Shown here: positions 38-56,250 of the stretch, piece after piece
Layout of the letters: the number at the start of each line of letters is the position of its first letter
How positions within the stretch are numbered: position 1 is the first letter of the stretch
Assembly: GCA_964016885.1 (NCBI GenBank)
Contig: OZ024742.1
Location: forward strand, 225,122,001-225,186,000
Direction of reading: 5' to 3'
Source of the DNA: Eledone cirrhosa
Lineage: Eukaryota
DNA: 64,000 nt
Translations under genes and position numbers: made by a program
Notes under the pieces: generated by a model
Told to the model about the DNA's origin: nothing
The model's database searches: none
The model's input: the letters and a program-made list of their open reading frames with translations, nothing else

Positions 38-2345
<2,308 letters not shown>

Positions 2346-12701: not shown

Positions 12702-12736
12702 GTTTAAAATAGAGTGGAAAAGATGGGAAAGACCAC

Positions 12737-14833: not shown

Positions 14834-15070
14834 GTTTTTTTGTTTAAAATGAAATTTTGGGTACAAAACCCCAATAACTGGTTATTTAACCCCGAAGGGC
14901 CAAATAACGGACAGAAAGACCCCTCTCACGAGGAGGAGGGTGTCTTTATCAACAATTTGGTTCAAGTTTTAAACAATTTACAATTGTTTTAACGGTTAAA
15001 AATTACTATACCTTACAGAGCCGAGCCTCCGTCAACCATGGCATTCAATAATAATAATAATAATAATAAT

Positions 15071-15315
15071 GATTACTTATCGCAAATCCCAGGAAACCCG
15101 CGTATAGGAGAAATACAAAAGATAGTACTAATGGGAACTGCCCATATACTAAGGAAGATTCTGTCAATATAAGTACATCACAAGTCTAAACACTAAAGAT
15201 GCATGTGTGAATATGTATGTTCTTTCTTGAACATGGCGGACCTTGTTGTCTCTTGAGGTCACTGGTTGTGACTTGGTGATTACTCGTATGAACATAAAGC
15301 AAGATAAATGCAACT

Positions 15316-15316
<1 letters not shown>
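15071..15316 (+). mobile_element. 246-bp 3' fragment of an R4/Dong-like RLE LINE (cassette D1)
   Basis: Encodes DYLSQIPGNPRIGEIQKIVLMGTAHILRKILSI*, homologous to LQKACLMGTARTLRYVLNI* at the end of the 21731 ORF. Followed by a 3'UTR and (TAA)n. Confidence 0.85.
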
Positions 15317-15367
<51 letters not shown>

Positions 15368-15627
15368 TTTCTTTATTAACCACAAGGGTTTACATAAAGT
15401 AGACATTAAGGACAGTGCAGGACAATGCAGGACGGTACAAATGGGCATTTCTGCGTGTAAAAAAACAAAAACAGAGGATGTAACAAAAATAACAATGAAA
15501 ATAACAATGAAAAATTCCCCAATAGGGGGGAGACTTCGGAGGGACATTTGTGGAGAAAGCCCAGTAAAAAGCCACAATGACCCTGACCACCAAGGCAAGT
15601 GCCCTCTCCCAGTTTTCCACCTTTAGT

Positions 15628-18600: not shown

Positions 18601-19047
18601 GCGTGCATCTAAGATCCCGTTCCAGTCGCCCACTAACACTAAAGAGCGGGACGTTCCAAGAAAGGTCTCCAGACGCCGGAAGAAATCAGGCCGCCCTGCT
18701 CCTGTCGGGGCATAGACGGCCACTAGCCTGAAAGCTTGCCCGTCTCCGCTGGTCACGTCCAGCACCACCAGCTTACCCTCTGGGTCCAGGAAGATGGCCC
18801 GTATGGCGAGATCCAAACCTCTCCGAAAAAGCACAGCAACTCCTCCACCGGATCCAGGACGGCTGGGAGATGCGTACACATCGAAGCCGCCGAAGATCGG
18901 TGCGAAGGCCCGTGCTTCGGAGATTCTGGTCTCGCTGATGGCCACTACATCTATGTTTAGTGACCTGAGGTCGTTGAGCAGGTGACCCTGCTTCCATGAC
19001 GACCCCAAGCCACGCGCATTTATGCTGCCTATTCTGAGTGAGGTCAT
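15628..19047 (-). CDS. LINE ORF2p (APE-RT-CCHC, 1139 aa)
   Basis: Same motifs as 9282-12701; intact. Confidence 0.97.
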   Translation of the reverse strand: MTSLRIGSINARGLGSSWKQGHLLNDLRSLNIDVVAISETRISEARAFAPIFGGFDVYASPSRPGSGGGVAVLFRRGLDLAIRAIFLDPEGKLVVLDVTSGDGQAFRLVAVYAPTGAGRPDFFRRLETFLGTSRSLVLVGDWNGILDARWDCVGLADRGGGCKSLTNLLRRFELSDRYRLDFPNVPMWTWTNRIGSSRSYLDRVFCREIDRSSIGCPQFKIVSYTDHKFVICVLDLDRLHRRGPGYWKLNASLPARKAYRDRISELVKRALTGAIVNNKWWFALKRAIRIESIRFSKALAIEKNRAEGELVRKLDEALSKGIATDVLAAKLALDQFFNAKHEGCVVRARVRALRHEGTKAVQWARVAEARRGNKATIRSLVDHDGRMLLDPGQMCEAFQRHFAQLFGGSGGPGRGMDFSVYLDGLPRLSATEAKCCEKPITAAEVREAMTGCTRGKSPGLDGLPYELYVQMPDLFGGLLADVYCNWQQNGRIPSSVSRGAVALLRKDPNKGDNIDNFRPITLLNTEFKILAKVLAKRLALVVGGLVGEAQTCAIPDRSIHDNLHLMRYIVERVAREPGTGGSLINLDQSKAFDRVDHRYLAAVLRAAGFGPVFRGWIAAMHSDICSVVRVNGHLSEPFNIMRSVRQGCPLSSLLYVLTLEPLLHKLETLRGVPRELGCGRSVSAYADDVTVVVSNAKHIEAIGTTLREYEAVTGAMINQEKSVGLQLGTWRGRSMPSNSVVGRWTDGPVKLLGVWFGPDLQTDKNWDEVTSRVASLTQKWAERKLSLKGRAEVANAYIASVICYRLTVVPCPKPRLTALERLLFRFLWKGRAPMVRRSICCQHPLRGGLGMPWLMMRRHALRLRHLHLFLDGDQVWSPFARRVFPQLVSLTELQSWVKRRPRGSAWRLECLQALTALDQSGNVIGGNSTSAFYRGLVEGKSDDVLGETLGVDENQLANLFGRTFGPGPMDNFQKSLAWQCYRGALPVRDKLYRHGGAVSRACPRCAQGDETVLHALVQCPKIADLWVYVEHLLSRLGRIQLSSESIVRIAPPSSFSREGQAVFICLVAMAKEIVWWTRLKGLKTSTYLFGDALIDFFKFHLKRKIRVEKEVLSSQHFVERWVREARMARVNGPTLSIYL

Positions 19048-19082
19048 GTTTAAAATAGAGTGGAAAAGATGGGAAAGACCAC

Positions 19083-21179
19083 TTACCGTACTTTTGGTAG
19101 AGGAGGGATGGTTTTTACATCCCTTTTCACTTGATCGTCTGGTGAAGGGACCGTTGAATCGTCCCTTCGGCTGGTCGTCGGCTCTTCTAAGAGAATGTCT
19201 GAGTATACTCTTCGATTGATGGTTCCTCCTAGGTCCCTGAAATCACCAACTGCGTTGGGGAATTTCGTTTTAATATTTGTGTATTGTTTCTGTGCTATTT
19301 TTAGCAGTCTTATGTTAGTTGGCGTTTTGATTGGTGCTGGTATTATGTAGTCCTGTTGTGAAATGTCTGTGTGTTCAATTATGTAAGTCATTAGTTTCTT
19401 GTTGTGTGTATTTATTGCCGTGCATTTGTTTTTCTGGGGGTGGGGTGTGGTTCTGCTATTTTCTTGTCGTTGTTGCTGGGTGTGTGTGTTTTGTTGTTGT
19501 GTTTGCGATGTTGGTGCTTGTGGTGGTGGTGTTGAAGGTGTTGTTGGCGGTGGGGTTGTCGCCGGTGGTGATGGTGGCGCTAGTGTGGGTGGTGATGGTG
19601 TTGGTGTTGTTGCTGCTGTGGGTCTCTTTGCAGTAGACTTTACCCTTTTCTCATTTCTTTCCTCACTTTTCAAAGGCGACGATGCGCTGCTTCTGCGTTT
19701 GTGCCTTCTTACGACCTTTTGCCATCTCTCTCCCACCTCACACTCCATGTCTGATTCTGTGAGGTCGGGGAGGGGTACCAACTCCACTCTTTCACTTGTT
19801 GTTGTTGGTGATGTTTGCACTGGAGTCTCTGTTGCAGCTGCATTTGGTATTGCTGTTGTTGTTGTTAGTATTTCCACTGCTGCTGCTGTTTTTGATTTCC
19901 GTGGAGTGGGTATGGGTGCCACGGGCCTATCGTTCCTGGTTGCCGCTTGTCCTGTTGCTGGTAGCCGTGGAGCCGGATTCGGAAGGAGGGGGGTTTTCTC
20001 CTTTCTCAGGGTCTTCTCGTTGCAGAAGGCCCTGAGGTGAGTCTTCGATCCACAGCGAAAGCATTTCGGGCGTTTGCCCTCAACACTTATGGGCAGTTGA
20101 GTGCCGTTATCGAAGTCTATCACATCCGGGATAGCTTCGATGCACTCCTGGTTGGTTTGGATTAGCATCTCAATGGAGGAGCCGACCCAATCTTCTCTTA
20201 CTTTTTTCTGTACTTGCAGTACAGTTGTTTTGTCCTCGATTCCGACGAGGACAGACGCGGCCAGCCAAGAAGGGGTCATTCCGGGGGGGACGTGGGTCAG
20301 TTTGACCCTCACAATTTTTTGCCCACAGTAGGAGGGCACCAACACCATTTCCTCGCTCCTTAGGGTCACTACTGATTGGGCCTTTGCCTCCTGGGGTGTG
20401 GCAAAAAGTACGTCTACGGTGGCATATTTTTTGCCTCGGGTGATGTGCGTTTTCCGCTGCCACACAGACCCCAAGGCTTTTTGTATTTGGGCCTCTGTGG
20501 CTCTTTCCACCCTACGGGATTTTGTACTTACTGTACGGTACGTGACCGTACAGTGCTCTTGGGTTTCGAAAAATTTTTCCGCTGCCTTGCAGATTGCTCG
20601 GTGTCCGTTCTTTGTCACCATCTTCTTCGCTTCCTCTAATTCCTCATTTGTTATGAGGATTGTTTCCAGGTTTTTCGCAATACCTGCAAATGAGATTGGT
20701 TTTTCTCTGCTGTTGTTGTTGTCGTCAGAGCTGCTGGTACTTTTGTTGTTGCTGCAGGTACTACGACTACTGCCTCCGCCGCTGTTGCTGTGGTTGTTGT
20801 TGGTGTTGCTGCTGCTAATGCTGTTGTTGTTTATGCTGCTGGTGATGCTGTTGCGGCTGCTACTGTTGTTTTCATTGTCACTGTTGCTGTTGTTATTACG
20901 GCTGCTACTGCTATTATTCCTGACGTCAGACGAATGAACTGGGTTTTCGTATTTCCCGCACACCTGTTTCGTCGCTGTCGTCGTCGTCGTGGAGAAACCT
21001 TGCACGCTTTGCACGAGACTTTTCTTTTCTTTCGTCACTTGCGAAAGAGAAGGGAGGGAGAGAGACACATTTAAAGAAGGGAGGGAGAGAGACAATCTTC
21101 TCTCTGCTGTAGTGATGATTGAGGAAGAAGAAGACGGAATGAGTGGGAGTGACGTATGAAATTTCTTTTTGGTAGCCAT
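19083..21179 (-). CDS. LINE ORF1p
   Basis: Identical translation to A1 ORF1. Confidence 0.9.
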   Translation of the reverse strand: MATKKKFHTSLPLIPSSSSSIITTAERRLSLSLPSLNVSLSLPSLSQVTKEKKSLVQSVQGFSTTTTTATKQVCGKYENPVHSSDVRNNSSSSRNNNSNSDNENNSSSRNSITSSINNNSISSSNTNNNHSNSGGGSSRSTCSNNKSTSSSDDNNNSREKPISFAGIAKNLETILITNEELEEAKKMVTKNGHRAICKAAEKFFETQEHCTVTYRTVSTKSRRVERATEAQIQKALGSVWQRKTHITRGKKYATVDVLFATPQEAKAQSVVTLRSEEMVLVPSYCGQKIVRVKLTHVPPGMTPSWLAASVLVGIEDKTTVLQVQKKVREDWVGSSIEMLIQTNQECIEAIPDVIDFDNGTQLPISVEGKRPKCFRCGSKTHLRAFCNEKTLRKEKTPLLPNPAPRLPATGQAATRNDRPVAPIPTPRKSKTAAAVEILTTTTAIPNAAATETPVQTSPTTTSERVELVPLPDLTESDMECEVGERWQKVVRRHKRRSSASSPLKSEERNEKRVKSTAKRPTAATTPTPSPPTLAPPSPPATTPPPTTPSTPPPQAPTSQTQQQNTHTQQQRQENSRTTPHPQKNKCTAINTHNKKLMTYIIEHTDISQQDYIIPAPIKTPTNIRLLKIAQKQYTNIKTKFPNAVGDFRDLGGTINRRVYSDILLEEPTTSRRDDSTVPSPDDQVKRDVKTIPPLPKVR

Positions 21180-21416
21180 GTTTTTTTGTTTAAAATGAAA
21201 TTTTGGGTACAAAACCCCAATAACTGGTTATTTAACCCCGAAGGGCCAAATAACGGACAGAAAGACCCCTCTCACGAGGAGGAGGGTGTCTTTATCAACA
21301 ATTTGGTTCAAGTTTTAAACAATTTACAATTGTTTTAACGGTTAAAAATTACTATACCTTACAGAGCCGAGCCTCCGTCAACCATGGCATTCAATAATAA
21401 TAATAATAATAATAAT

Positions 21417-21661
21417 GATTACTTATCGCAAATCCCAGGAAACCCGCGTATAGGAGAAATACAAAAGATAGTACTAATGGGAACTGCCCATATACTAAGG
21501 AAGATTCTGTCAATATAAGTACATCACAAGTCTAAACACTAAAGATGCATGTGTGAATATGTATGTTCTTTCTTGAACATGGCGGACCTTGTTGTCTCTT
21601 GAGGTCACTGGTTGTGACTTGGTGATTACTCGTATGAACATAAAGCAAGATAAATGCAACT

Positions 21662-21662
<1 letters not shown>
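21417..21662 (+). mobile_element. R4/Dong-like 3' cassette D2
   Basis: Appears identical to 15071-15316, with the same (AAT)8 linker upstream. Confidence 0.87.
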
Positions 21663-21732
<70 letters not shown>

Positions 21733-21734
<2 letters not shown>

Positions 21735-22988
21735 AGGAATTGTTAAGAACTCAATACATTCGGAGAGTACGGAGCGTATTGAAGTCACATCTGAACAGCA
21801 GAAATGCCATAAGCGCAGTAAATTCCCGAGCTGTGTCTATTATTAGGTACAGTGCGGGAATTCTGAGATGGAATGTTGCTGAACAAAAAGAAATGGATAG
21901 GAAGACTAGGAAGCTATTGACTATCTACAACATGTTCCACAAGAGGAGTGATGTCGATAGACTCTACTTAAGGAGATCTGAGGGTGGAAGAGGTCTTATC
22001 AGCATAGAGGACTGTGTTCAGATGGAGAAAAACAACCTACACAAATACGTGACTGATAGTAAGGAGCCAATGCTCAGAACTGTACTGAAGGAGGGGATAA
22101 TAGGCCAGGGGATGTCCAAGGAGGAAATAACAACAAGGAGAAAGAGCAGCCTTCAGGAAAAATCCCTTCATAGTACCTTCTTTGAGAAAACTGAATTTAG
22201 AGATCCACAGACATGGAACTGGTTGAAAAGAGGAGACCTTAAAAAGGCTACAGAAGGAATGTTAATGGCTGCGCAGGAGCAGGCCCTCAAAACGAAGTGG
22301 TTGAAACACCATATTTACAGGGAGGAGGCTAGCCCACTGTGCAGGATCTGTGGAGAGAGAGAGGAGACTGTGGCTCACATTGTATCCGAGTGTAAACACC
22401 TAGCCCAGGCCCACTATAAGGGCTGGAGACATGATATGATGGGCAGGGTGATCCACTGGCACCTATGCAAAGTAAACAATTTACCACATTCTGAGAAATG
22501 GTATGAGCATAGGCCAGAGGCGGTGATACAGAACGATCAGGTGAAGGTGCTGTGGGATTTTAGGATACAGACGGACAAGAAACTGGAACACAATAGATCT
22601 GACCTGGTGGTTGTGGACAAAGAAAAAAGATCGTGCTTGATTGTGGATGTGGCCTGCCCATTCGACACGAGAGTGCAAGAGAAGGAGAGGGAGAAAATTA
22701 ACCGATACCAGGACTTAAAGTGGGAGGTAAAAAGGATTTGGAACTGCCATGAAGTCAAAGTGATCCCGATTGTCATAGGCGCACTAGGGACTATCTCCGA
22801 AAGTTTCCAGGGATGGTTAAAGAAAATCGGCCCCTTCACGCTTTTTGGAACGCTTCAAAAGGCATGCTTGATGGGAACAGCAAGAACCCTCCGATACGTC
22901 CTGAATATCTGAGGCTGCAGGTAGTGGCTTGATATTCATTCCAACAAACTTTCCAGTTAACTAACATCAATGACAGAGACTCAATGAG
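21733..22988 (+). mobile_element. 5'-truncated R4/Dong-like RLE LINE in (TAA)n (393-aa open C-terminal ORF 21731-22912)
   Basis: LYLRRSEGGRGL, LMAAQEQAL, CRIC..ETVAHIVSEC, RHD, SDLVVVD..VDVACP, IVIGALG. (TAA)n on both sides. The ATG is formed by the junction with the repeat. Confidence 0.92.
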
Positions 22989-23260
22989 TAATAACAATAA
23001 TAATAATAATAATAATGTTTTCTTTATTAACCACAAGGGTTTACATAAAGTAGACATTAAGGACAGTACAGGACAATACAGGACGGTACAAATGGGCATT
23101 TCTGTGTGTAAAAAAAACAGAGGATGAAATAAAATAACAAAGAAAAATTCCCCAATAGGGGGGAGACTTCCGAGGGACATTTGTGGAGAAAGCCCATTAA
23201 AAGACCACAGTGGCCCTGACCACCAGCGCAAGTTCCCTCTCCCAGTTTTCCACCTTTAAT

Positions 23261-26200
23261 TTACAGACACATACTCAGAGAAGGCCCATTCATTCGGGCC
23301 ATACTTGCTTCTCTCACCCATCTTTCAACAAAATGCTGGGAAGAGAGCACTTCCCTCTCTACCCTGATTTTCCTTTTCAGATGAAATTTGAAAAAGTTAA
23401 TCAGGGCATCACCGAAGAGGTAAGTGCTCGTCTTCAGCCCTTTCAAACGTGTCCACCATACTATCTCTTTCGCCATGGCCACCAGACAGATAAAAACTGC
23501 CTGCCCTTCCCGGCTAAAGGAAGGAGGCGGGGAAATCCTCACGATGGACTCAGCTGATAGCTGGATCCGTCCTACACGTGACAGCAGGCGTTCGACATAA
23601 ACCCACAAGTCAGCAATGCTCGGACACTGGACGAGTGCGTGCAGGACGGTTTCGTCGCCCTGCGCGCATCTCGGACATGCCCGGATGACGGCACCTCCAT
23701 GCCTGTAGAGTTTATCCCGAACTGGCAAAGCTCCTCGGTAGCACTGCCAGGCCAGGGATTTCTGGAAGTTGTCCATAGGCCCCGGCCCTAAAGTCCTTCC
23801 GAAGAGATTGGCTAGTTGATTTTCGTCGACGCCTAGAGTTTCTCCAAGTACGTCGTCGCTCTTCCCCTCCACTAATCCCCTATAGAACGCCAAGGTGGAG
23901 TTTCCACCGATCACATTTCCCGATTGGTCGAGGGCTGTGAGCGCCTGAAGACATTCCAGTCTCCAAGCGCTCCCTCTCGGTCTTCGCTTGACCCAGGACT
24001 GCAGCTCCGTCAAGGAGATGAGCTGGGGAAAAACGTGTCTAGCAAACGGCGACCACACCTGATCACCGTCGAGGAAGAGGTGGAGATGTCGTAGCCTGAG
24101 CGCGTGTCTGCGCATCATCAGCCACGGCATGCCCAGCCCTCCACGTAGCGGGGGTTGACAGCAGATGGACCGCCTGACCATCGGAGGCGCTCCGGCCTCC
24201 CTTCCACAAAAAGCGAAAGAGCAAACGCTTCAGCGCAGTCAGGCGGGGCTTAGGAGAAGGTACGACGGTCAGGTGGTAGTAGATGACGGATGCGATGTAC
24301 GCATTCGCCACCTCCGCTCGACCTTTCAGGGATAGCTTCCTCTCGGCCCATTTCTGGGTGAGAGAAGCCACCCTGCTCGTCACCTCGTCCCAGTTTTTGT
24401 CCGTCTGGAGGTCTGCACCGAACCAGACCCCTAGCAATTTAACCGGTCCGTCCGTCCAGCGCCCGACGACGCTGTTGGACGGCATGGGCCTGCCTCTCCA
24501 GGTGCCGAGCTGCAGGCCAACTGACTTTTCCTGGTTGATCATTGCTCCTGTCACCGCTTCGTATTCTCTTAGTGTAGTGCCGATCGCCTCGATGTGTTTG
24601 GCGCTCGACACCACTACGGTGACATCGTCGGCATATGCTGACACGGATCTTCCGCATCCTAGTTCGCGCGGGACCCCCCTCAACGTCTCCAGTTTGTGCA
24701 GTAATGGCTCTAGAGTCAATACGTACAATAGGGACGAGAGGGGACATCCTTGGCGGACCGAGCGCATGATGTTGAACGGTTCCGAAAGGTGACCGTTCAC
24801 TCTCACTACAGAGCAGATGTCGCTATGCATGGCAGCGATCCAGCCTCTGAAGACGGGCCCAAAGCCAGCCGCCCTCAGGACTGCCGCTAGGTAACGATGG
24901 TCGACCCTATCGAAGGCTTTCGACTGATCTAAATTGATCAAAGACCCACCCGTGCCAGGTTCCCTAGCTACCCTCTCTACGATGTATCGCATGAGGTGGA
25001 GGTTGTCGTGGATGGATCTGTCGGGAATGGCGCATGTCTGTGCCTCTCCCACCAGACCACCAACGACAAGCGCCAACCTCTTTGCTAGCACCTTGGCCAA
25101 AATCTTGAACTCTGTGTTTAGCAGAGTTATGGGCCTGAAATTATCTATGTTATCCCCCTTGTTCGGATCCTTTCTCAGCAGCGCCACCGCTCCTCGGCTC
25201 ACAGAGCTGGGAATTCTCCCGTTCTGTTGCCAGTTGCAGTAGACGTCCGCCAAGAGGCCTCCGAACAAGTTTGGCATTTGTACGTAAAGTTCATAGGGCA
25301 GACCATCCAAACCAGGCGATTTACCCCTTGTGCAACTAGTCATTGCATCCCGTACTTCAGCGGTTGTTATCGGCTTTTCGCAACACTCCGCCTCAGTGGC
25401 CGAAAGCCGCGGCAGTCCGTCGAGGTAGACACTAAAGTCCATCCCTCGATCCGGCCCGCCACTGCCCCCGAACAGTTGAGCGAAGTGTCGCTGTAAAGCT
25501 TCACACATTTGCCCGGGATCGAGTAGCATGCGCCCGTCGTGGTCCACCAAAGACCGGATCGTGGCTTTGTTGCCACGACGCGCCTCCGCCACTCGGGCCC
25601 ATTGAACGGCTTTCGTCCCCTCGTGTCTGAGAGCACGCACCCTAGCTCTGACAACGCAGCCTTCGTGCTTTGCATTGAAGAATTGGTCAAGGGCCAATTT
25701 CGCCGCAAGTACGTCGGTCGCGATGCCTTTGCTAAGCGCCTCATCTAATTTTCTAACTAATTCTCCCTCTGCTCTATTTTTCTCTATTGCTAAAGTCTTA
25801 CTAAACCTAATGGACTCTATTCTAATTGCTCTTTTCAGAGCAAACCACCACTTGTTGTTGACGATGGCCCCCGTCAACGCCCGCTTAACTAGTTCGCTAA
25901 TCCGGTCTCTGTAGGCCTTGCGCGCTGGTAAGGACGCGTTTAGCTTCCAGTAGCCGGGTCCTCGTCTATGAAGCCTATCTAAGTCAAGCACACAGATCAC
26001 GAATTTGTGGTCCGTGTAGCTGACTATCTTGAATTGTGGACAGCCTATGCTAGACCTATCTATTTCCCTACAAAATACTCTATCTAGATATGATCTGGAT
26101 GACCCTATGCGATTTGTCCAAGTCCACATTGGTACATTCGGGAAATCCATTCGGTACCTGTCAGACAGTTCAAAACGTCTGAGCAGGTTGGTGAGACTCT

Positions 26201-26688
26201 TGCACCCTCCTTCCCTATCCACTAATCCCACACAATCCCAGCGTGCATCTAAGATCCCGTTCCAGTCGCCCACTAACACTAAAGAGCGGGACGTTCCAAG
26301 AAAGGTCTCCAGACGCCGGAAGAAATCAGGCCGCCCTGCTCCTGTCGGGGCATAGACGGCCACTAACCTGAAAGCTTGCCCGTCTCTGCTGGTCACGTCC
26401 AGCACCACCAACTTACCTTCTGGGTCCAGGAAGATGGCCCGTATGGCAAGATCCAAACCTCTCCGAAAAAGCACAGCAACTCTTTCCCCCCGAACCCGGA
26501 CGGCTGGGAGATGCGTACACATCGTAGCCGCCGAAGATCGGTGCGAAAGCCTGTGCTTCGGAGATTCTGGTCTCGCTGATGGCCACTACATCTATGTTTA
26601 GTGACCTGAGGTCGTTGAGCAGGTGGCCCTGCTTCCATGACGACCCCAAGCCACGCGCATTTATGCTGCCTATTCTGAGTGAGGTCAT
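23261..26688 (-). pseudogene. ORF2 of LINE B, with two frameshifts
   Basis: Split across ORFs 26413-26715, 24063-26522 and 23261-24181; +1 nt near 26485 and +7 nt near 24190 relative to A. Confidence 0.92.
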
Positions 26689-26722
26689 GTTGAAAAGGAG
26701 TGGAAAAGATGGCAAAGACCAC

Positions 26723-28721
26723 TTACCTTACTTCTCGTAGGGGAAGGACGGTTTTTCCATCCTTTTCACTGCTTGTGGCCTCCTCAGGAAGGATTTCCTT
26801 ATAAATCCTCCTGGAGAGTGCTTGTCGGAAGTCTGCGATGTCTTTGGGGAATTTTTGTTTTAGTGTCATGTACGTTTTCTGTGTGATGCGAGTGATTTGT
26901 ATGTGTGGAGGTGGTGTGAATTTTGGGGTTGTTGTGTAGTCTTTTTCTGTGATGCTGGTGTTGTGTTGGATGTAGTGTAATAATTGCTTGTTGTTCAAAT
27001 TTAATGCTGTGTAGTGTGTATCGTTTTGGTTGTTTTGTTTTGTTTGCGTTTGTTGTGGGTTTGTTTCTGTTTCGCATTTTGGTGACTTTTGTGGTGTAGG
27101 TGATGGTGGTGCTGGGGTTAATGATGGTGATGGTGTTGGTGTTTGGGTTGATGGGGTTGGTGATGCTGGTGTGGATGGTGGCATATCTGTCCTAACTTTT
27201 TTGTTTCTTAATTTATTTGTTTCCCTCTGTATTTTGTTTTTGGAGGGGGAAGGAAGAGAATTTTTTCTTTTTTGGTTTCTTTTTTTTTTCCGGATATCGT
27301 TTCTCACTCCTCGTCGTCACAATCTGTCTCCAGTTGTGATAGGCCGGGGAGTGGAAAATCCTCCACAGCCGTTAGTTTTGGTTGTGGTGTGGTGGATGGT
27401 GTAGGCGCTGGTGCTAGTTCTGAAGCGTTGGGTGGTGGTGGTGTTGGTTTTGCTGGTGGTGCTAGTGGTGTTGGTTTTGCTACTGTTGCTGGGGTTGTTG
27501 CTGTTATAGTTGCTTCTGTTGTTACTGCTACAGTTGTTGCTGCCATCTCTGCTACTGGTGGTGTTGATGGTTGTGTCACTGGGGTGGGTAGGAGAGGTGG
27601 CCTCAACCTTTTAGCCTGAGGGCAGAAAGCCCTTAGGTGGGTTCCTTCACCACAAACGACACACCTAGGTCTTCTGCCCTCGACAATTACCGTGCGGTGG
27701 CTGCCGTCAGTGAGGTCTATTACCTCTGGGATCTCCTCAATGCTTTTTTGGTCCGCTTGGATCAGGAGCTCCATCCCAGATCCGGACCAGTTCTCCTGCT
27801 TTTCTTTTGCTATTGCTATTATTTTCGTGTTGGCTTCGATGCCGGCGAGGACGGCCGCTATTAGCCAGGGAATTTCGATGGCCGGTGGAACGTGGGTCAC
27901 CCTGATCTTTACGAGTCTCTGGCCACAATAGCTTGGGACGAGTGTGAAGTCGTCACTTCTTAATGGGGCCATGGAGTGTTCTCTAGCCTCCTCTGGTGTT
28001 TCAAAGAACACATCCACGGTTCCATACTTTTGCCCACGTCTGATGTGGGTTTTTCTTGCCCACACATGTCCCAAAGCTTTTTGGATTTGGGACTCGGATG
28101 CCCGTTCCACTCGGCGCGATTTTAAATTTATTGTTCTATACGACACGGTGCATAGGCGCCGATGCTCCATTTTATTAGGTGGGGGGGTGAGGCTGACCCT
28201 GTACCCATCTTTCTTTACCATTTGTTTTGCATTTTCTAAATCCTCCTGAGTTACCGTAAATGCTTCGAACTGTTTTGCTACTCTGGCGAAACTGAGGGTC
28301 GGTTTTATAATGTCATTGTTGTTGTTGTTGCTATCGTTATTTGTGTTAATATTAATTTTAGTTTCAGTTGTGGTGGTGGTGACGTCAGTCGTCTTTGGTG
28401 GGGAAGAGTCCATTTTGCTTGATTTCATTTCGATATCACGAGTTAATTTATTTTTTTCTTCTTTTGTTTCTGTTGTCGCGGTGGTGGTGGGGTGGTGGTT
28501 GTCGCCGTGGTGGTGGTGGTGGTGGAGGCTTTAACACCTGCAGTCATTGGTAATGGCGGGAAATGAATGTCTGCCTGAGACAAATTTAAAATATTGCTAC
28601 TGCTTATATTTTTTTTTTTTGTGTTGGCAAACGTAGTAACATTTACAATGGTGGTGTCGGTGTGAGGTGTTAATTTGTGAGGAAGGCTTTCAGCTGTTTG
28701 GTGCAGAGGTGAATTAGCCAT
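26723..28721 (-). pseudogene. ORF1 of LINE B, frameshifted
   Basis: Pieces 28443-28721, 27304-28428 (CVVCGEGTHLRAFC knuckle; KSRRVERA, QIQKALG and LVPSYCGQ shared with A) and 26723-27307. Confidence 0.88.

Positions 28722-31860: not shown

Positions 31861-31948
<88 letters not shown>
30121..31948. repeat. Clustered (TA)n/(CA)n/(TG)n microsatellites
   Basis: Direct inspection. Confidence 0.9.
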
Positions 31949-31952
<4 letters not shown>

Positions 31953-32068
31953 GGAGGTGAGTTTTATTGTAGTACAATAAAGCAATGCAGATATCGGATA
32001 AGAAGCACTCTACAGTTTGTAGGACTGGAGTATACATAATATATAAGATCAAAAGATGGTTAAAAGAG

Positions 32069-32133
32069 TTTATCTGATGAAAACATAAATGTTATTGCAT
32101 GATGATATTTGTTTTTGAAATGCGCATAATAAA
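32069..32133 (+). ncRNA. Type I hammerhead ribozyme motif
   Basis: tttat-CTGATGA(32074)-long stem II-GAAA(32117)-TGCGCA-TA-ataaa; palindromic stem III. Confidence 0.75.
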
Positions 32134-32240
32134 ATACATGGAACTCTTTTAACCATCTTTTGATTTTATATATTATATATATATATATTTTTTTTTTGCT
32201 TTTCTTGATGAGACTTTCCAAGTATTTACCCATGTTTTAT

Positions 32241-32314
32241 ATTGCCTCGTCTGACGAACGAATGAAGACGTTTCTTATTCGCCTCATTCGGGAAACCTCT
32301 GGTAATGAGGTAAT
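32241..32314 (+). ncRNA. Type I hammerhead ribozyme motif
   Basis: attgcctcgt-CTGACGA-a-cgaatga...tcattcg-g-GAAA-cc tct gg-TA-atgaggtaat. 10-bp stem I (2 GU); 7-bp stem II with a mismatch at its base. Confidence 0.75.
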
Positions 32315-32413
32315 TATATTGTATTGATTTTTATACATTAATTTTGCTCTGGTACTTACATAGAGCACTCTTCACTTCTATGACCTTTTCTGTTTTCAAC
32401 GGAAATTTCAATA

Positions 32414-32492
<79 letters not shown>

Positions 32493-32638
32493 CCAAAAGG
32501 TTCATTGATTAATCAATGAATATAGTTTTACAATAGATTAGAAGCACTCAACAAACAAGTTTTCTGGAGTTATTAATTAATACTGCCAAGACTGGAATTG
32601 AACCATCAGCACAGTTGAGGTATGTCATACATCAATTT

Positions 32639-32710
32639 ATATATTTTATCTGATGAGGACGTACTGAGGAAACCACACAGTACCTCCGAAATATATATAA
32701 TAAAATATAT
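32639..32710 (+). ncRNA. Type I hammerhead ribozyme motif
   Basis: atatattttat-CTGATGA(32650)-ggacgtactg...cagtacctcc-GAAA-TATATA-TA-ataaaatatat. Confidence 0.8.
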
Positions 32711-32727
32711 TTGATTACATGAATGTC

Positions 32728-32761
<34 letters not shown>

Positions 32762-33098
32762 GTAGAATAATCGAGTATCGAAAAATCGGCGCACGAGTTC
32801 ACGATAAACAAAATTCGAAATGAGCGGCAGAGGGCTCAATAATTCAGATAAATCAGAGCTATAACTATCGTTAAAATACCGACACACATAGAACTTGTCT
32901 AAAATCAACCATACGACCGAAAAAATACGATCTGGAAGATTCGGGTCACTCAGATAAAATATCAATAAATCAATAAATCAAATGAATGTAAAAAGCTTAC
33001 CCGGACCCGCTAGAAAGATGGTAAATCTAGCTTCTTGGGTTTCTGTAAATCCTTAAATCGCCCTCTATCAGCCTACATAAAAATATATAAGACTTCTA

Positions 33099-33168
<70 letters not shown>

Positions 33169-33485
33169 TAATAAAAACAATGAATAAAAACAATGAATAA
33201 AAACAAAGAAACATTTCCTTATATTAAAAAAATTCATCATTTTACGATCGTTTCTAGGATATATATGTGTGTGTTGGTATGTATATCATATAGATCTATG
33301 TAAACTATCAGAGGGAATATACATACCTACATATATATGCTGTCTGTATGTATATATATTGTGTTGTATATCAACGCGCTCTATACACTTTTCACTGTAA
33401 CGATGTATTGAGCACGATTTTTATAAACAAACTGACGGGTATGTGTGTATTTACGTATGCTGTTATATATTGTGTGTGGTGGTCC

Positions 33486-36767: not shown

Positions 36768-37343
36768 ATCAAAATATTATGTATATTATGTATACTCCAG
36801 TCCTACAAACTGTAGAGTGCTTCTTATCCGATATCTGCATTGCTTTATTGTACTACAATAAAACTCACCTCCTACATATATATATATATATATATATATA
36901 TACAAAAGGTTTAGGATAGTGGTTAGGGCGGAACAGGAGGAGAAAGGAAGAAAGGAGTTTCCATCGTCAGCTGTAAATGTTTCCCGATCCGATGTTTCGG
37001 CGCTGAATTACAGGACATCGGTGTAGTTCGGGTGCACCCGAGGCCTTTTATTAATCAAAAGGCCAGGTGGGAAAAGGAGAGAGAAAGAGAGAAAAGGAAA
37101 GGGAGGGAAAGGAGGAAGAACAGGGGTGGGGAGACGATGAGAGAGAGAAAGGGGGAACGGATCAGGGGGAAAAATAGGAAAGGAATAGGAGAAAAAAAGT
37201 GTACAGGTCTCATATATATATGTACGTATGGGTTTACCGAACATTTATTATAATGTTCGGTTTGTTTGTAAACAAACAGCTCGAATTACGCCATACAGTG
37301 CTCGGCAACGGTCGTCGCCCTTTTGTTCAACACTGACACAGGA

Positions 37344-37386
37344 ACGATGTACTAGTTTCAAGCTTATTAGCTATCGTCAGCATCGT
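37344..37386 (-). ncRNA. Minimal type I hammerhead ribozyme
   Basis: Reverse complement of 37920-37962. Confidence 0.82.
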
Positions 37387-37919
37387 ATACCTTTCTGTCA
37401 GATGATTGAATGTCTGAAAGTATATACTTTCCTTATGCATATTAACGGCTGAGCAGCCTAATTTGCATATCAAGTGAATCACTCGGCTGGGCATACCGAA
37501 AACGATAAATGGAAAAGAATGAAACGAAATTTCATTTCTCACTCTTAGTGCGATGATCGTTGCCGAGCACTGTACGGCGTAATTCGGGCTGTTTGTTTGT
37601 TTACAAACAAACCGAACATTATAATAAATGTTCGGTAAACCCATACGTATATATATATATATATGTGTGTGCATGTATGTATATATATACATACTACTGT
37701 GCGTCTGTACACATATATGTATGTACGTATACATACTTATATTTAGGTATCAGCCATACTAAGAGTGAGAAATAAAATTTCGTTTCATTTTTTCCATTTA
37801 TCGTTTTCGGTATGCCCGGCCGACTAACTCACTCGATATGCAAATTAGGCTGCTCAGCCGTTAATATGCATAAGGAAAGTATATACTTTCAGACGTTCAA
37901 TCATCTGACAGAAAGATAT

Positions 37920-37962
37920 ACGATGCTGACGATAGCTAATAAGCTTGAAACTAGTACATCGT
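37920..37962 (+). ncRNA. Minimal type I hammerhead ribozyme
   Basis: acgatg-CTGACGA-t-agct aata agct-t-GAAA-CTAG-TA-catcgt. Confidence 0.82.
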
Positions 37963-38176
37963 TCCTGTGTCAGTGTTGAACAAAAGGACGACGATCGTTG
38001 CCGAGCACTGTACGGCGTAATTCGAGCTGTTTGTTTACAAACAAACCAAACATTATAATAAATGTTCGGTAAAACCATACGTACATATATATATATGTGC
38101 ATGTATGTATATATATACATACTACTGTGCGTCTGTACACATATACGTATGTACGTATACATATATATATATATAT

Positions 38177-40134
38177 CTTTAAGTCGTTTGGAAGCCTCGA
38201 CAATGTAGATGGGTAAATCTCCGGGTAACAAGATCTGGTGTGGAGAGAGAGATGTAAGTGGGTGTACGTTGAGATGCGTGGCGTGTATAAGACTGTAGCG
38301 TGTAGAGGAATGAAGGACAGAGCGTAAAGGATAAAAATAAAAATAACAACACGAGAAAGAGTTACCTTGGGAGAGATTTAATTGTCCCTATATATTTCGG
38401 ATTCACATCCATCAACTGGGGGATTTTTCCGGGGGTGTGCTAGCGATCTCTTACATGGACAGCCTCGAACGCAAGGCACTCAACGCCTGCCACCCAAACG
38501 CCGTCGCCTTTTTCTCAAGGTACGTGGACGATATCCTCATCCTCACATCTTCCCAAGACATGGCGAACAGAATCTATGAGACGTTCAACAACACGGACGA
38601 GAACATTGACTTCAGTGTTGAACACCCCAACGACGACGGGTCACTTGCCCTCCTCGACTTCCGAATCAACATCACGGAACATGGAGGAATCCACTGCAAC
38701 TTCTACCGAAAGGCAGCCTGCAGGGACCTGTTCGTCCACTACAAGTCCGCCCTCCCTAACAGTGCCAAAAGAGGATACATCACGAACGAGATCGCGCGAA
38801 TCAAAAATAGATGCAGCGATCCCGCGCGTGGTGTCACTCATACCAAGCGATTCCTCGAGGTGCTGGAGACGAACGGGTACCCTACCTCACTCACAGACAG
38901 AGTAGGAAACACCAGACACAAGAGACAGAGAGGCACCCAAGGCAAGTGCTTCCTTAAAATGCCACACCTGGGCGAGAATAACACCAACGCTATCCGCAAG
39001 GCTATACGGAGGGAGGGCCTCGACATCCACCTGGCCCACTCGGGCCCCTCCCTGCAAAGATGCCTCTCCAGGAAACCCGGGAAATTAACTGACGCGTGCT
39101 CCCTCAGAGACTGCCCGATGCGCCATGCAAACTGTTGCCTACGCACATACGCCGTGTATAAGATAGAATGTAACAAGTGCAACCAATACTATATAGGTAG
39201 CATAATCCGACCGTTGCACATCCGGATCAAGGAGCACACTAAAACCAGGGCCTCGTCTTTCCGGAAACACATAGCCAAATGCGGAAACAAAGACGGAAGG
39301 CCCATTGTCACAATTCTAGCGACAGAAAGAAACGTCGGCACGTTACGTATCAAGGAAGCACTTTGGATCAAACGCCTAGGGCCACAATTAAACAACCGAT
39401 CCGAAAGAAGCGAAATGAGGTGGTTGGTTTAAGTTAACAAACGATGCAGCAGCACACGCACACACACAAGCGGGACAACAACACACGCACACACACACAC
39501 ACAGTAGCATTCCACCATACGAACATACTACACTGCCAATACAGAGGAACAAGGCAACAACACACGCGCGCACACACACACACACTCAAGCGAGACAACA
39601 CACGCACACACACACACACAGTAACATTCACCAAACAGGCAGAGAATACTATGGACTGACAGCTAGCTCCACCCCACCCCCACAATTGAAAGAACTACTT
39701 CGGCCGCTGACCTCTGCCTGACCGACCCCGTTTCACGCGCACGCGCGCTCTGCTAAATACCTCAGATATTCAAAACAATGAACAGCGGAGGACACGTTTC
39801 ACACCTTTCCGACAAACAAACCCCACCCCCCCGGAAAAAACCCCAGTTGATGGATGTGAATCCGAAATATATAGGGACAATTAAATCTCTCCCAAGGTAA
39901 CTCTTTCTCGTGTTGTTATTTTTATTTTTATCCTTTACGCTCTGTCCTTCATTCCTCTACACGCTACAGTCTTATACACGCCACGCATCTCAACGTACAC
40001 CCACTTACATTTCTCTCTCCACCACCGGATCTTGTTACCCGGAGATTTACCCATCTGCATTGTCGAGGCTTCCAAACGACTTAAAGAAATTTACCTTATT
40101 ATTCCACAATGCTTCAAGCAAACTTCAATACTCT

Positions 40135-41067: not shown

Positions 41068-41480
41068 AACTGTAGATCAAATAGAACCTGCCCTTTAGAT
41101 AAAAAATGCTTAACCAAGGATATCATATACTCATGCACAGTCACAACTAGCAACTCTTCTGAAACCTATATAGGCTCTACTTCAAACTGCTTCAAAACCA
41201 GATACAATTCGCACCTCCACTCATTCAAAAAACACAGTCTAGCCAACTGCACTTCTCTATCTAGCTACATACACTATCTAAAAACTAAAAATAAACCATA
41301 TACACTTAAATGGGAAGTGATAGGTAACGCGTCATCGTACCAACCACCTAATAAATTTTGTAATCTCTCTACTAGAGACCCATACTATCATCTTCTCAAA
41401 CCATAACCTCCTTAATAAAAAAAATCAGAAGTGTTCGCGTCTTGCCAACACCGCTTCCGACACTCCTTCCAAAACTTTAA
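41068..41480 (+). pseudogene. PLE GIY-YIG endonuclease remnant (absent from the ORF track)
   Basis: Manual translation: NCRSNRTCPLDKKCLTKDIIYSCTV..ETYIGSTSNCFKTRYNSHLHSF..TSLSSYIHYLK..LKWEVI..YQPPNKFCNL, then frameshifts and LLNKK. Confidence 0.85.
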
Positions 41481-42960
41481 ACCCAATATATAACAATGTC
41501 AGACTTGAACCCGTCACCACCTCTAGCAGCAATCATCAGGGGCACACCTTACACCTTATCTCCACACCCATTAATCCTCTTTAACCCAAATAGTGGCATC
41601 CTCCTAGTACCTTTTACCTTGGAGATATCCCCATGTACTTCTACTTTTGGTATATTGGCCTTCAATTGCTTAGACTACATTACACCAATGTAAACTTTAA
41701 GCACGGAATTGGTTGTGCTAACATTGTCCTGTGTATGTAGTGCCATCATTGGATAAATGGAAGATTAAGTAATTAATTTATTAACATAAAAAAGCTATAT
41801 AATCTATATGCTGAGTGCAATGAATTATGTACAGGTGATGTATGAGTTATAAATACATGTATGACTTGATGGTCAGATCAGTGTCTTTATAAGTGAGAAT
41901 TGATCTCTGGACTACCCTAGTGATATTTAACTTTGCCATGCAATCAGTCATGCAATGACCCAGAACTTACCAGGAGTCATATATAGAAGTGATTCTAATA
42001 AGACCCTGCCAGGTCCTGCGGGTGGACTACACTTACAAAGATCATTGATTTGGAGATCTGACTCTTCATGTAGAATGTTCGGTGGGGGCACTCTATGATA
42101 AAAGGTATTCATCCTAATATGAACACCTTTAGTACTTCTCGATAGACTACACTGTAATTTATAGATAAGATACTTAAATTTAGAAATTGTTTATAACCTT
42201 ATATGATGGGAACTCATTTGAGACACCATTAATGTACTTTAGGATAATCAATTTAACTATAGAAATCAGCTAGTTACCTCCCCTTACGCATTAACTCCCC
42301 TTAATCACACACACACTTCCGGAATATAATACGATGTCATCTCTCACAACAAAAACAACCTGATCTATGAATCGAATTAAAGAACGACAAACTGATGTTC
42401 TAGCATGGTTCACCAGGCACCCAATGTTGAATCATCGTGGATTGTGAGATGGGCATGTAGTCTATAAATTGCGTTTCCTGGATTGTGAGAGTGGTGGTGT
42501 GTACGAGGACAGTGGTGCTGTTTTGCTTCTCATTTGTAATATTTTTGATATTTTTGGTGTTTCTCCACACACGGGCTTCTATATCGTACAGGTGTGTGTA
42601 AATAATGCTTAACCAGTTCACCCCCATGATGCTCTTGATTGCCTGCTTTGACTGCTTGTTTTACTTGTAACAATCTGCCGCACTATAATCTTGTATAAAT
42701 AGGACACGCGTGCATGCCTCACGTGTGACTGTTGCATACACTGGCTACTCCAAACTTTCCTTTTGCTTTATCTTAGTAGACTGCCAATGTTTTATTTTAA
42801 TTTTAATTTTGTCCTTTAATATGACTGTAATATTTGTATGTAAATTACCATGCTATATTATTATAATGGATGTCAACCCACTGTGGGTAATATATACATA
42901 TGTTTCTATATGTCTCTTGTGTTGAAAAGGAGGTCAAGTATGTTAAAAATCACTGAATAA

Positions 42961-45788: not shown

Positions 45789-47864
45789 TGGTGGATTAGT
45801 GGGTGGTAGTGGTAGTAGTGGTGGTGGTGGTGGGGTAGTGGTGGAATGGTGGTAGAGGTAGTGGTGGAATAGTGGGTCGTAGTGGTAGTAGTTGTGGTGG
45901 TGGGGTAGTGGTGGAATGGTGGTGGAGGTAGTGGTGGAATGATGGTGGAGGTAGTGGTGGAATGATAGTGGGGGTAGTGGTGGAATGGTGGTGGAGGTAG
46001 TGGTGGAGGTAGTGGTGGAGGTAGTGGTGGAGGTAGTGGTAGAATGATGGTGGAGGTAGTGGTGGAATAGTGGGTGGTAGTGGTAGTAGTTGTGGTGGTG
46101 GGGTAGTGGTGGAATGGTGGTGGAGGTAGTGGTGAAATGGTGGCTGGTAATGGTGGTGGGGGTAGTGGTAGAATGGTGGAGGAGGTAGTGGTGGAATGAT
46201 GGTGGAGGTAGTGGTGGAATGCTGGTGGGGGTAGTGGTGGAATGGTGGTGGAGGTAGTGGTGGAGGTAGTGGTGGAATGATGGTGGAGGTAGTGGTACAA
46301 TGGTGGTGGAGGTAGTGGTGGAGGTAGTGGTGGAATGATGGTAGAGGTAGTGGTGGAATGATGGTGGAGGTAGTGGTGGAGGTAGTGGTGGAATGGTGGT
46401 GGAGGTAGTGGTGGAGGTAGTGGTGGAATGATGGTGGAGGTAGTAGTGGAGGTAGTGGTGGAGGTAGTGGTGGAGGTAGTGGTGGAGGTAGTGGTGGAAT
46501 GATGGTAGAGGTAGTGGTGGAATGATGGTGGAGGTAGTGGTGGAGGTAGTGGTGGAATGGTGGTGGAGGTAGTGGTGGAGGTAGTGGTGGAATGATGGTG
46601 GAGGTAGTGGTGGAATGATGGTGGAGGTAGTGGTGGAATGATGGTGGAGGTAGTGGTGGAGGTAGTGGTGGAGGTAGTGGTGGAGGTAGTGGTGGAGGTA
46701 GTGGTGGAGGTAGTGGTGGAATGATGGTGGAGGTAGTGGTGGAATGGTGGTGGAGGTAGTGGTACAATGGTGGTGGAGGTAGTGGTGGAATGGTGGTGGA
46801 GGTAGTGGTGGAGGTAGTGGTGGAATGGTGGTGGAGGTAGTGGTGGAGGTAGTGGTGGAATGGTGGTGGAGGTAGTGGAACAATGGTAGTGGAGGTAGTG
46901 GTGGAATGGTCGGTGGTAATGATGGTGGAGGTAGTGGTGGAATGGTGGTAGTGGTAGTGGTGGAATGGTGGTGGAGGTAGTGGTGGAATGGTGGTGGAGG
47001 TAGTGGTGGAGGTAGTGGTGGAATGGTGGTGGAGGTAGTGGTGGAATGGTGGTGGAGGTAGTGGTGGAGGTAGTGGTGGAATGATGGTGGAGGTAGTGGT
47101 GGAATGGTGGTGGAGGTAGTGGTGGAATGGTGGTGGAGGTAGTGGTGGAATGGTGGTGGAGGTAGTGGTGGAGGTAGTCGTGGAGGTAGTCGTGGTAATG
47201 GTGGTGGAGGTAGTGGTGGAGGTAGTCGTGGAGGTAGTCGTGGTAATGGTGGTGGAGGTAGTGGTGGAGGTAGTGGTGGAGGTAGTGGAGGTAGTGGTGG
47301 AGTGGTGGTGGAGGTAGTTGAGGTAATGGTGGAGGTATTGGTGGATTGGTGGTAGAGGTAGTGGTGGAGATAGTGGTGGAATGGTGGTGAGGTAGTGGTG
47401 GAATGGTGGTGAAGGTAATGGTGGAGGTAGTTGTGGAATGGTAGTGGAGGTAGTGGAGGTAGTGGTGGAATGGTGGTGGAGGTAATTGTGGAATGGTGGT
47501 GGACGTAGTGGTGGAATGGTGGTGGAGGTAGTGGTGGAATGGTGATGGAATGGTGTTAGAGGTAGTGGTGGAATAGTGGGTGGTAGTGGTAGTAGTTGTG
47601 GTGGTGGGGTAGTGGTGGAATGATGGTGGAGGTAGTGGTGAGGTATTGATGGTAATGGTGGTGGGGTAGTGGTGAAATGGCGGTGGAGATAGTGGTGGAA
47701 TGGCGGTGGAGATAGTGGTGGAATGGTGGTGGAGGTAGTGGTGGAGGTAGTGGTGGAATGGTGGTGGAGGTAGTGGTGGAATAGTGGGTGGTAATAGTGG
47801 TGGAGGTAGTGGTGGAATGGTGGTGGAGGTAGTGGTGGAATAGTGGGTGGTAATGGTGGTGGAA
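45789..47864. repeat. ~2.1-kb G-rich compound minisatellite (GGTGGAGGTAGT / GGTGGAATGGT units)
   Basis: Direct inspection; it accounts for the long H/P/T-rich minus-strand ORFs in all frames. Confidence 0.93.
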
Positions 47865-48585
47865 TGAGATGAGATGAAAGGGAAATTTGAGAAGTTCGGA
47901 AACGCGACACAAACATGTATTGCTTTATCAATTTTAAGGATAAGTATATATATATAAACGGAAATATATACATATATATATATATATATATACATAAGCA
48001 CACACACACACATATATATTATCCGGTTAAGAGCTTTGAAATGTGGTTGCCCCAACGCAAATGATTTTTATAATAGTCGAGGTGTACGATAAATGTATAT
48101 ATATATATGTATACGGCTCAGAAATATCTCTTTCTTTGAGCTATTTAATTGTAAAAGACTGTTTGAGTTTATAACTCTATATATAGTATATATATTTATA
48201 TATATTTATATGGTATTTATTTGGTATCTATATGGTATAGAGGTAACCGAAATTTAGGCTTGATAAGAAGAAAGACAGACAGAAAGAAAGAAAGATATGA
48301 AGAAAGAATCGAAGAAAGAAAGCAAGGAAGAAAGAAAGAATGGAAAGATAGAAGAGATTGAGAGAGAACAATAAACAAGAAATGGGTAAAAGTAAGTTTA
48401 AGGTAATTGAAACTGTAAAAGTGAGATAAAGAGAGAGAATGTAAAGAGTACTGGTCACTGCGACTGCACGATGTCAGTATTAATGTCCACAATAAGGTTG
48501 GGCTGGATTAGATAATGTACCAGTCAAATCCAAAGACTGACGTTTCTATAATCGACCTTCCTTTTTCTCAAAGATTAGAAGCCAT

Positions 48586-51993: not shown

Positions 51994-52099
51994 TTAGAGG
52001 GTTTTCCCGAAGGTGATCGGGAAGAAACCACAGTTAATAAGGTACTTAATACATTATTAGAGAAGGTAGATATTTATTTTATATAGAAATGACTTCTAC

Positions 52100-52140
52100 A
52101 TGACTAGAACTGTTTCACTCTTTTGAAATCATCAGATCAT
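52100..52140 (-). ncRNA. Type I hammerhead-like motif in a PLE tail remnant
   Basis: Minus strand: atgat-CTGATGA-tttcaaaagagt-GAAA-cagttc-TA-gtcat. Confidence 0.5.
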
Positions 52141-55893: not shown

Positions 55894-56250
55894 GAGTTAA
55901 ACAAGATTCAATGAGTACATCAAAGAATGAGTTTTACAGTAGATTGGAAGCACTCTACAGTAAAATATTTTCCAGAGTTATTAATATAATATTAAATTCA
56001 AATATTAATTAAACATTTTCATATATATATATATGAAAATGTTTAATCCCGACGATTTAATCCAGAGCTCAAGCTGTTTCGACGGCTATTTCTGGACCGA
56101 AATAGCCGTCGAAACAGCTTGAGCGCTGCTGTCGGGGTTAAACATTTTCCTATTACCCACTCTACTACCCTAAGTATTGAGTACTCTGGTGCGTTATGGG
56201 TCCATCTGGTTCCTTACCACACCTCCTTCGTTATATTGTATATATATAAA
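55890..56250. mobile_element. PLE-like tail remnants with nested palindromes
   Basis: Perfect 26-bp inverted repeat 56067-56092/56099-56124; 55905-55985 resembles 32510-32580. Confidence 0.6.

Follow-up and report, generated by a model that had tools for sequence, protein, structure and literature searches.

The Hydra clade of C-terminal EN+ PLEs, which includes Hydra-1_Obim of Octopus bimaculoides, was described by Craig et al. 2021 (PMC8557442). The accessible text of that paper defines the clade by an RWK-type motif, DKT rather than DKG, a CxCX5C motif, CxxC and CxH motifs around E and N, and no CCHH motif, and the supplement lists a (TA)n-targeting Hydra family of O. bimaculoides with a 3' hammerhead. 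In the literature searched, the initiation of RT in PLEs is known from an in vitro study of one Poseidon element, PAc of Anolis carolinensis (Frangieh et al. 2024, PMC11167929). According to the accessible text, two internal RT start sites flank a 'tail' in PAc and both DNA strands are cut and extended, while the PAc ribozyme required protein and was dispensable for insertion in vitro. Hammerheads of animal PLEs are the subject of Cervera and de la Pena 2014 (PMC4209133), which, in the text available, proposes dimer action, a low activity in vitro and a circular template. Non-LTR retrozymes, as far as the available texts go, consist of a single unit repeated head to tail (PMC7229834; Li et al. 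preprint 10.64898/2026.07.22.740005).

Here, we analysed a stretch of 64,000 nucleotides of the Eledone cirrhosa genome (contig OZ024742.1, positions 225,122,001 to 225,186,000 of the forward strand), which we call the window. An earlier note on this DNA had claimed three complete type I hammerhead ribozymes on the plus strand of 31949-32730. The interval was scanned with a type I hammerhead descriptor (stem I, CTGANGA, stem II, GAAA, stem III, UH), which returned exactly three motifs, all on the plus strand and with the helix coordinates of the earlier note; the cores start at 32074, 32251 and 32650. Any motif appeared in none of 300 dinucleotide shuffles of the region and in none of 20 shuffles of the window. 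All three have the CUGANGA/GAAA/UH core and three helices and are open at helix I, as in type I.

32069-32133, plus strand: HHR1, predicted cut after 32128 (AUA), A10.1-U11.1, C.U at stem II position 4, palindromic stem III
32241-32314, plus strand: HHR2, predicted cut after 32304 (GUA), 10-bp stem I, A10.1.G11.1 mismatch
32639-32710, plus strand: HHR3, predicted cut after 32699 (AUA), 11-bp AU-rich stem I, G10.1-C11.1, C.C at stem II position 4, palindromic stem III

As the earlier note had said, TGCGCA and TATATA, the inserts in stem III, do read as palindromes and the interval is without an ORF (no stop-free frame of at least 150 aa). Its label 'canonical' does not hold. The G10.1-C11.1 pair, called highly conserved in the accessible text of PMC4209133, is absent from two of the three motifs, with A-U in HHR1 and an A.G mismatch in HHR2, and Rfam at gathering thresholds gave 0 matches in the whole window. 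A G-C at the foot of stem II was found in 9 of 56 motifs sampled from the genome. The Hydra hammerheads in File S2 of PMC8557442 resemble HHR2 in having an unpaired base on either side at the stem II foot; the Hydra-1_Obim hammerhead listed there has stems that differ from those seen here, and the likeness to the Hydra families is one of description. The type I fold in pLTRs, the palindromic helix III and opposite-strand pairs 100-700 bp apart are as described in the available part of PMC4209133, unlike the long stem II (31-36 nt between the core halves). Nor are the stems unrelated, as had been proposed, since HHR1 and HHR3 have in common a TTTAT/ATAAA stem I, the AUA triplet and the mismatch at stem II position 4, and a hairpin motif is common to the tails of their units. 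Stem I of HHR1 is reduced to 5 A-U pairs by an arm junction, compared to an 8-bp stem I in other family 1 copies, and the distal stem II of HHR2 carries a 4-nt deletion private to the window copy (1/30).

The genome was searched with each of the three units around these motifs, which gave 330 (unit 1), 2295 (unit 2) and 1868 (unit 3) first-look candidates, and 40 candidates per search were scored. In other copies, all three units run on into 3' UTRs and RT-endonuclease ORFs. Long copies were found by protein searches of the genome, the loci being chosen for long frames or best score. In the direct copies, which have partial tandem pLTRs (loci L133, L134, L146 and L148), the full element consists of the hammerhead, the tail, the rest of the 5' UTR, the ORF, a 3' UTR of ~0.7-1.2 kb and a hammerhead, with a hammerhead-to-hammerhead unit length of 3.7-3.9 kb. 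Frames were open over 815-884 codons in 8/8 fetched family 1 loci, among them one of 821 codons, and over 715-719 codons in 8/8 fetched family 2 loci; two of the three families still keep full open frames. Broken frames adjoin 90-94% hammerhead matches in family 3 (L151-L156), and no intact ORF for family 3 itself was found among the fetched loci; a 750-codon frame in L160 belongs to a family 3 relative that is ~80% alike at the hammerhead. The proteins of family 1 and of the family 3 relative are 37% and 34% identical to that of family 2. The RT in L018 was at first considered a possible member of family 2 or 3 but comes from an additional family.

The protein motifs are RWK/RWT, DKT, YRDD, CxCX5C, CxxC before E and CxH after N. 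RWK and DKT occur in family 2, RWT and DKT in family 1, and DKT in the family 3 relative, where RWH was read by eye from the DNA. The CxCX5C linker and the CxxC/CxH motifs flanking E and N were found in families 1 and 2 and in the family 3 copies L098 and L159, and in these same proteins a CCHH motif is absent as judged by eye. An AlphaFold model of the family 2 protein (pLDDT 91) had telomerase RT as its top Foldseek match (E 2e-9). For the GIY-YIG nuclease, the YxG, R and H/E/N positions are kept in a 58-row alignment, and there was a weak profile match (57% probability) to a GIY-YIG-bearing ORF in the window but no Pfam match. Pfam named no relevant family in four ORF fragments and three long ORFs, the same 58-row profile had 0 matches among PDB sequences, and a protein database search with 1248 relatives gave no informative name among the 120 matches listed. 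The families are ORF-bearing PLEs with a telomerase-like RT, as modelled for family 2, and the ORF is linked to the hammerhead end in all three cases. The earlier proposal of PLE-type hammerheads from several families sitting in (TA)n is therefore borne out by matches to the ends of ORF-bearing PLEs.

The motifs would place the three families in the Hydra clade. As in the available description of that clade (PMC8557442), there is a single ORF, an RWK-type, DKT and CxCX5C motif set, insertion in (TA)n and a hammerhead near the 3' end. In contrast, the elements are 3.7-3.9 kb long, where that text calls Hydra elements 'generally short (<3 kb)', and their tails measure 75-95 nt, unlike the 30-40 bp it gives for PLE tails. 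The three families may be undescribed.

Copies were aligned to establish which parts of the elements are present at the locus, with positions counted from the hammerhead cut site. Two recurrent ends are referred to below, site A (~+51, ~+39 and ~+56 in families 1, 2 and 3) and site B (~+134, ~+116 and ~+150).

31869-31949, no strand: (TA)40 tract, into which the family 1 element likely inserted
31948-32070, minus strand: unit 1 left arm, family 1, +14 to +134 past the hammerhead cut, 96.7% to the natural full-length copy L133
32005-32031, minus strand: tail hairpin RCTCY...GAGYRC at the start of the family 1 tail, a conserved motif
32048-32164, no strand: 23-bp perfect inverted repeat (32048-32070 with 32142-32164), formed by the overlap of the unit 1 arms
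32069-32181, plus strand: unit 1 right arm, inverted family 1 pLTR piece, -59 to ~+51, 93-94% to L133
32186-32419, plus strand: unit 2, 5'-truncated 3' end of family 2 (-122 to +116), hammerhead and tail, site B end in (TA)38
32346-32368, plus strand: tail hairpin at the start of the family 2 tail, a conserved motif
32416-32491, no strand: (TA)38 tract between units 2 and 3
32492-32577, minus strand: unit 3 left arm, family 3 tail, site B end, 96% to L151
32574-32727, plus strand: unit 3 right arm, family 3 pLTR piece

The three motifs had been assigned each to its own (TA)n-bounded unit on the plus strand. This does not fit units 1 and 3, which consist of two arms on opposite strands. In alignments of unit 1 to other copies, its first 122 nt and its hammerhead part match on opposite strands. 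Its left arm has a ~82-nt tail, ends at site B and has lost its own hammerhead by truncation, while its right arm stops at site A without a tail. The left arm of unit 3 has a small deletion close to the end and the hairpin motif at 32544-32570, and the right arm falls short of site A, with other copies extending ~25 nt more. Many family 1 copies are near-perfect fold-backs with one hammerhead on each strand, and unit 3 shows the same two-arm construction as unit 1. Judged by these alignments, units 1 and 3 read as fold-back stumps, each a minus-strand tail arm joined to a plus-strand hammerhead arm, and unit 2 reads as a lone B end, a 5'-truncated 3' end. Unit 2 is 94% identical to the full-length copy L148 and 97-98% identical to 39 other copies among the matches listed. 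Separately, the loop of the family 3 tail hairpin (window 32550-32560; L001-L028) varies in nearly every copy, with the flanking stem letters kept.

Collectively, these results suggest that the three motifs are very probably the hammerhead-bearing ends (pLTR pieces) of three ORF-bearing PLE families with Hydra-clade motifs, truncated and likely inserted successively in a TA microsatellite. The right end of unit 1 and the truncated 5' end of unit 2 are only ~seven TA units apart, a proximity that would also suit a single chimeric insertion of units 1 and 2 made by template switching between RNAs of two families. However, both kinds of end, A and B, are already present in unit 1, truncation at the same place beside TA also occurs in other family 2 copies, none of the other 89 loci obtained in the unit searches showed this join, and family 2 looks younger (median 0.7% vs 6% between copies), all of which makes a chimera highly improbable. 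In public contigs (four sequencing runs, one study), no piece spans the locus, and 32174-32205 is without cover. A search of sequencing runs gave no RNA dataset among the matches listed, a result that says nothing about expression.

The fixed ends recur across the copies. In family 1, the alignment stops at +46-52 or +133-136 for 45 of the 52 distinct end contexts; in family 2 this is so at +36-40 or +111-116 for 37 of 41, and in family 3 at +55-58 or +147-150 for 60 of 69, all three counts being biased by the queries. Most A and B ends are then followed by TA repeats, and because element and target have TA-like letters in common, end positions are uncertain by several bases. An earlier tally of A plus B ends (27/28, 7/7, 32/34) was set aside because families 1 and 3 had been fetched with A+B queries and some pairs were self-hits; loci picked by ORF were used instead. 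In these (L133-L164), 31 of 34 free ends lay at A (18) or B (13), one of the A calls being loose (L155, +42). Every ORF-picked inverted insertion with both ends seen (8/8) had one A and one B end, with the tail at one end only. The spacing between the two sites, which is the tail length, is 75-95 nt.

The hairpin pattern RCTCY...GAGYRC was checked in five natural copies of four families. It starts at +51, +43 and +62 in families 1, 2 and 3, which is at or barely beyond site A. Family 1 has a second hairpin starting at +141, and the corresponding starts are +147 for the relative of family 3 and +149 for one more family, barely beyond site B where B was mapped; no second hairpin was found in family 2 by this pattern. 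The first pair of the hairpin alternates between A-U and G-C, and the folds are weak (-2.6 to -7.2 kcal/mol). From its position, the hairpin probably places RT at sites A and B. We give an even chance to the reading that in Hydra-clade PLEs a duplicated RNA hairpin signals two internal RT start sites, one for each end of a double-strand cut. If true, this would explain the one tailed and one tailless end of inverted insertions and the 75-95-nt tails. Under this two-hairpin reading, a full-length copy would require an RNA template that is tandem or has been circularised by the hammerhead, because the hammerhead lies upstream of both hairpins, which are part of the 5' UTR. No such hairpin in Hydra elements came up among the papers listed in a narrow search of open-access literature. 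The two-site end rule and the hairpin together form a precise, testable model of how RT starts in Hydra-clade PLEs.

The arrangement resembles that of PAc (PMC11167929, as far as its accessible text goes) in having two sites with a tail between them, AT-rich targets and a hammerhead at the pLTR-ORF junction, read here from sequence. Unlike the families studied here, PAc belongs to another clade, and its sites lie within the ORF, with an AC-rich stem-loop that has no target homology. The sites here, in contrast, lie in the 5' UTR, have TA-like letters in common with the target and stand ahead of the RCTCY...GAGYRC hairpin. On successive insertion of PLE ends, the putative GIY-YIG nuclease of the element would cut both strands within (TA)n. 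Both DNA ends may then act as primers for reverse transcription within the element RNA, with site A serving one end and site B the other, and the enzyme is probably positioned by a small hairpin that follows each site after a few bases. Two cDNAs that halt early and are joined back to back would give stumps like units 1 and 3, and a single truncated cDNA would give unit 2; both priming at A and B and the joining steps are reconstructed from the end positions and by analogy. Since TA would remain on both sides of each insertion, more insertions could accumulate there. The role of the hammerheads would be to process element RNA in tandem or circular form, HHR1 and HHR3 probably acting as dimers within their own family, and here the earlier note was right to read a palindromic stem III as a hint of dimers.

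The earlier note had also proposed families of tiny non-autonomous elements. Stated in full, this would make the units dedicated mini-elements of 200-280 nt, similar to SINEs or retrozymes, which are transcribed as such and for which PLE proteins provide the copying in trans. A short layout of two arms, 246-287 nt in length and with fixed outer ends, is indeed common to many family 3 copies, but this layout was selected for by the queries. Junction strings of 35-60 nt were distinct in 23 of the 24 scored family 3 loci (6 of 30 loci were unscored), and the sole identical pair is two copies 1 kb apart. The number of distinct junctions indicates that short forms arise repeatedly and not from a master. 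In the unit 1 part, the public contigs, which show the families to be abundant (four runs, one study), hold 14 differently placed joints among the 15 listed, although the same palindromic centre is seen in several fold-backs of family 1 (L047, L051, L056, L057). Short family 2 copies begin close to the same poly-T tract in L061, L063 and L075. Across the 25 resolved of 29 other family 2 copies, 5' ends are continuous from 58 to >1555 nt upstream of the core, with at least 400 nt in 18 of the 25, and the 3' end is fixed.

The two arms of one insertion can also be compared with those of other insertions, after removal of 15 redundant loci. Hammerhead regions differed by 1.6% within an insertion (15 pairs, 31 of ~1950 positions) vs 5.5% between loci (435 pairs) in family 1, and by 2.2% (4 pairs, 13/579) vs 6.3% (946 pairs) in family 3. 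In family 2 the values were 0.7% within and a median of 0.7% between, this family being too young to discriminate. The arms match better within copies than between them, suggesting that both arms come from one source and that each stump was likely made afresh from one source RNA. No unit at the locus shows a head-to-tail repeat. Together, these results make dedicated mini-elements very unlikely; a master is largely refuted by the lack of a common 5' end in family 2 or of a common internal junction in family 3. The units continue into ORF elements, their 5' ends are continuous and their junctions varied. The earlier note had named, as the outcome that would speak against it, that all copies are random truncations of long PLEs. 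Truncation largely holds; randomness does not, the 3' ends being fixed. A retrozyme array was likewise rejected, as there is no head-to-tail repeat at the locus and three different families are present. As in retrozymes (Cervera and de la Pena 2020, PMC7229834, as far as its text is accessible), type I hammerheads occur in non-coding units of a few hundred bases; unlike in retrozymes, three different families stand side by side, each the end of an ORF-bearing element.

We sampled the 3.0-Gb genome systematically (80 stretches, 799,600 bases) and found 56 motifs, compared to 0 after shuffling, or 70 per Mb (95% bootstrap 45-101). This extrapolates to about 200,000-210,000 hammerhead motifs in the genome. 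Within 200 nt of (TA)6+ lay 44 of the 56 motifs, vs 28% of random positions, and the sample held two different-family neighbours within 650 bp. A uniform model expects ~166 triples within 576 bp, including 42 with all motifs on one strand (range 11-127). The density is inflated by pairs from the same family, and TA targeting acts the opposite way. Motifs this dense should by chance yield dozens of triples on the same strand, and the three-motif cluster is thus ordinary for this genome. The cluster itself is of little weight, and the general points on motif load and the end rule are the useful ones. The load of PLE hammerheads is very high, and in this window the motifs were missed by Rfam and the proteins by Pfam.

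This density also bears on the idea that the locus is a retained cassette, in which the three ribozymes would cut a read-through RNA into functional RNAs or circles of 176 and 395 nt. The earlier note had predicted ~175- and ~395-nt pieces from a read-through transcript, and its arithmetic is right. The three cores are intact and on one strand, and ends left by hammerheads are in principle ligatable, as in the retrozyme circles of PMC7229834 (accessible text). However, intact cores are usual in these families (29/29 and 25/29), and so intactness is no sign of selection. Folding models, which disregard co-transcriptional folding and proteins, gave innermost stem I pair probabilities of 0.0, 0.0 and 0.24 in the whole-interval fold, leaving the cutting cassette without support, and placed the hammerhead fold of the isolated motifs 3.2-7.4 kcal/mol above the best fold. 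HHR1 lacks the distal stem I, and the 23-bp inverted repeat (fold z = -7.9; pair probability 1.0) is predicted to form a fold-back that displaces its stem I. Stem III self-pairing was -10.5, -5.1 and -3.2 kcal/mol, whereas cross-pairing between families was 0.0 to +2.4 kcal/mol, i.e. none. Since stem III strands of different families do not pair, the three motifs could not complement each other as dimers. A functional cassette was rejected on chance density, the predicted misfold of HHR1 and the absence of cross-dimer pairing, and we give it a very small probability; the hammerheads at the locus are most likely passengers.

Several neighbouring features were observed. The pile of repeat ends goes on beyond unit 3 at 32762-33100 and 33166-33346. 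The first is another repeat with a fixed end in (TA)n and no hammerhead by the descriptor, of which L176 has five tandem copies ~609 bp apart. The second (minus strand) belongs to a fourth hammerhead family, of which it retains the 3' half (GAAA, palindromic CGATCG, UA), the CTGA half being truncated; in complete copies such as L222, the two halves of the core are ~105 nt apart. A solo family 1 tail lies at 36782-36877 (plus strand; 99% to L133, site B end in TA), and a family 3-like tail fragment at 55895-56012 is 80% to L151. A frequent family whose stem III insert measures 14 nt is represented by hammerhead-like cores at 2215-2253 (plus strand), which passed the descriptor, and at 52097-52135 (minus strand), which did not. 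An inverted pair of small hammerheads with the stem III insert CTAG (37342-37964) is followed by a 361-codon frame at 38347-39432, with weak RVT_1 and GIY-YIG Pfam matches, which is a PLE of another family. A Hydra-type endonuclease fragment lies at 41068-41484 (plus strand). Elsewhere in the genome, L123-L132 represent another abundant family of Hydra type, in which open frames reach ~750 codons and a related hammerhead occurs together with both hairpins, and L206 2348-4711 holds a 485-bp repeat with a hammerhead per unit (four plus, two minus), a retrozyme-like array. LINE copies with AP endonuclease and RT occupy 9282-28530 (minus strand), where two frames of 1204 codons, spaced 6346 bp apart and with matching layouts around them, suggest a tandem duplication. 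At 45802-47866, the window holds a 2-kb GGT-rich tandem array with extreme GC skew.
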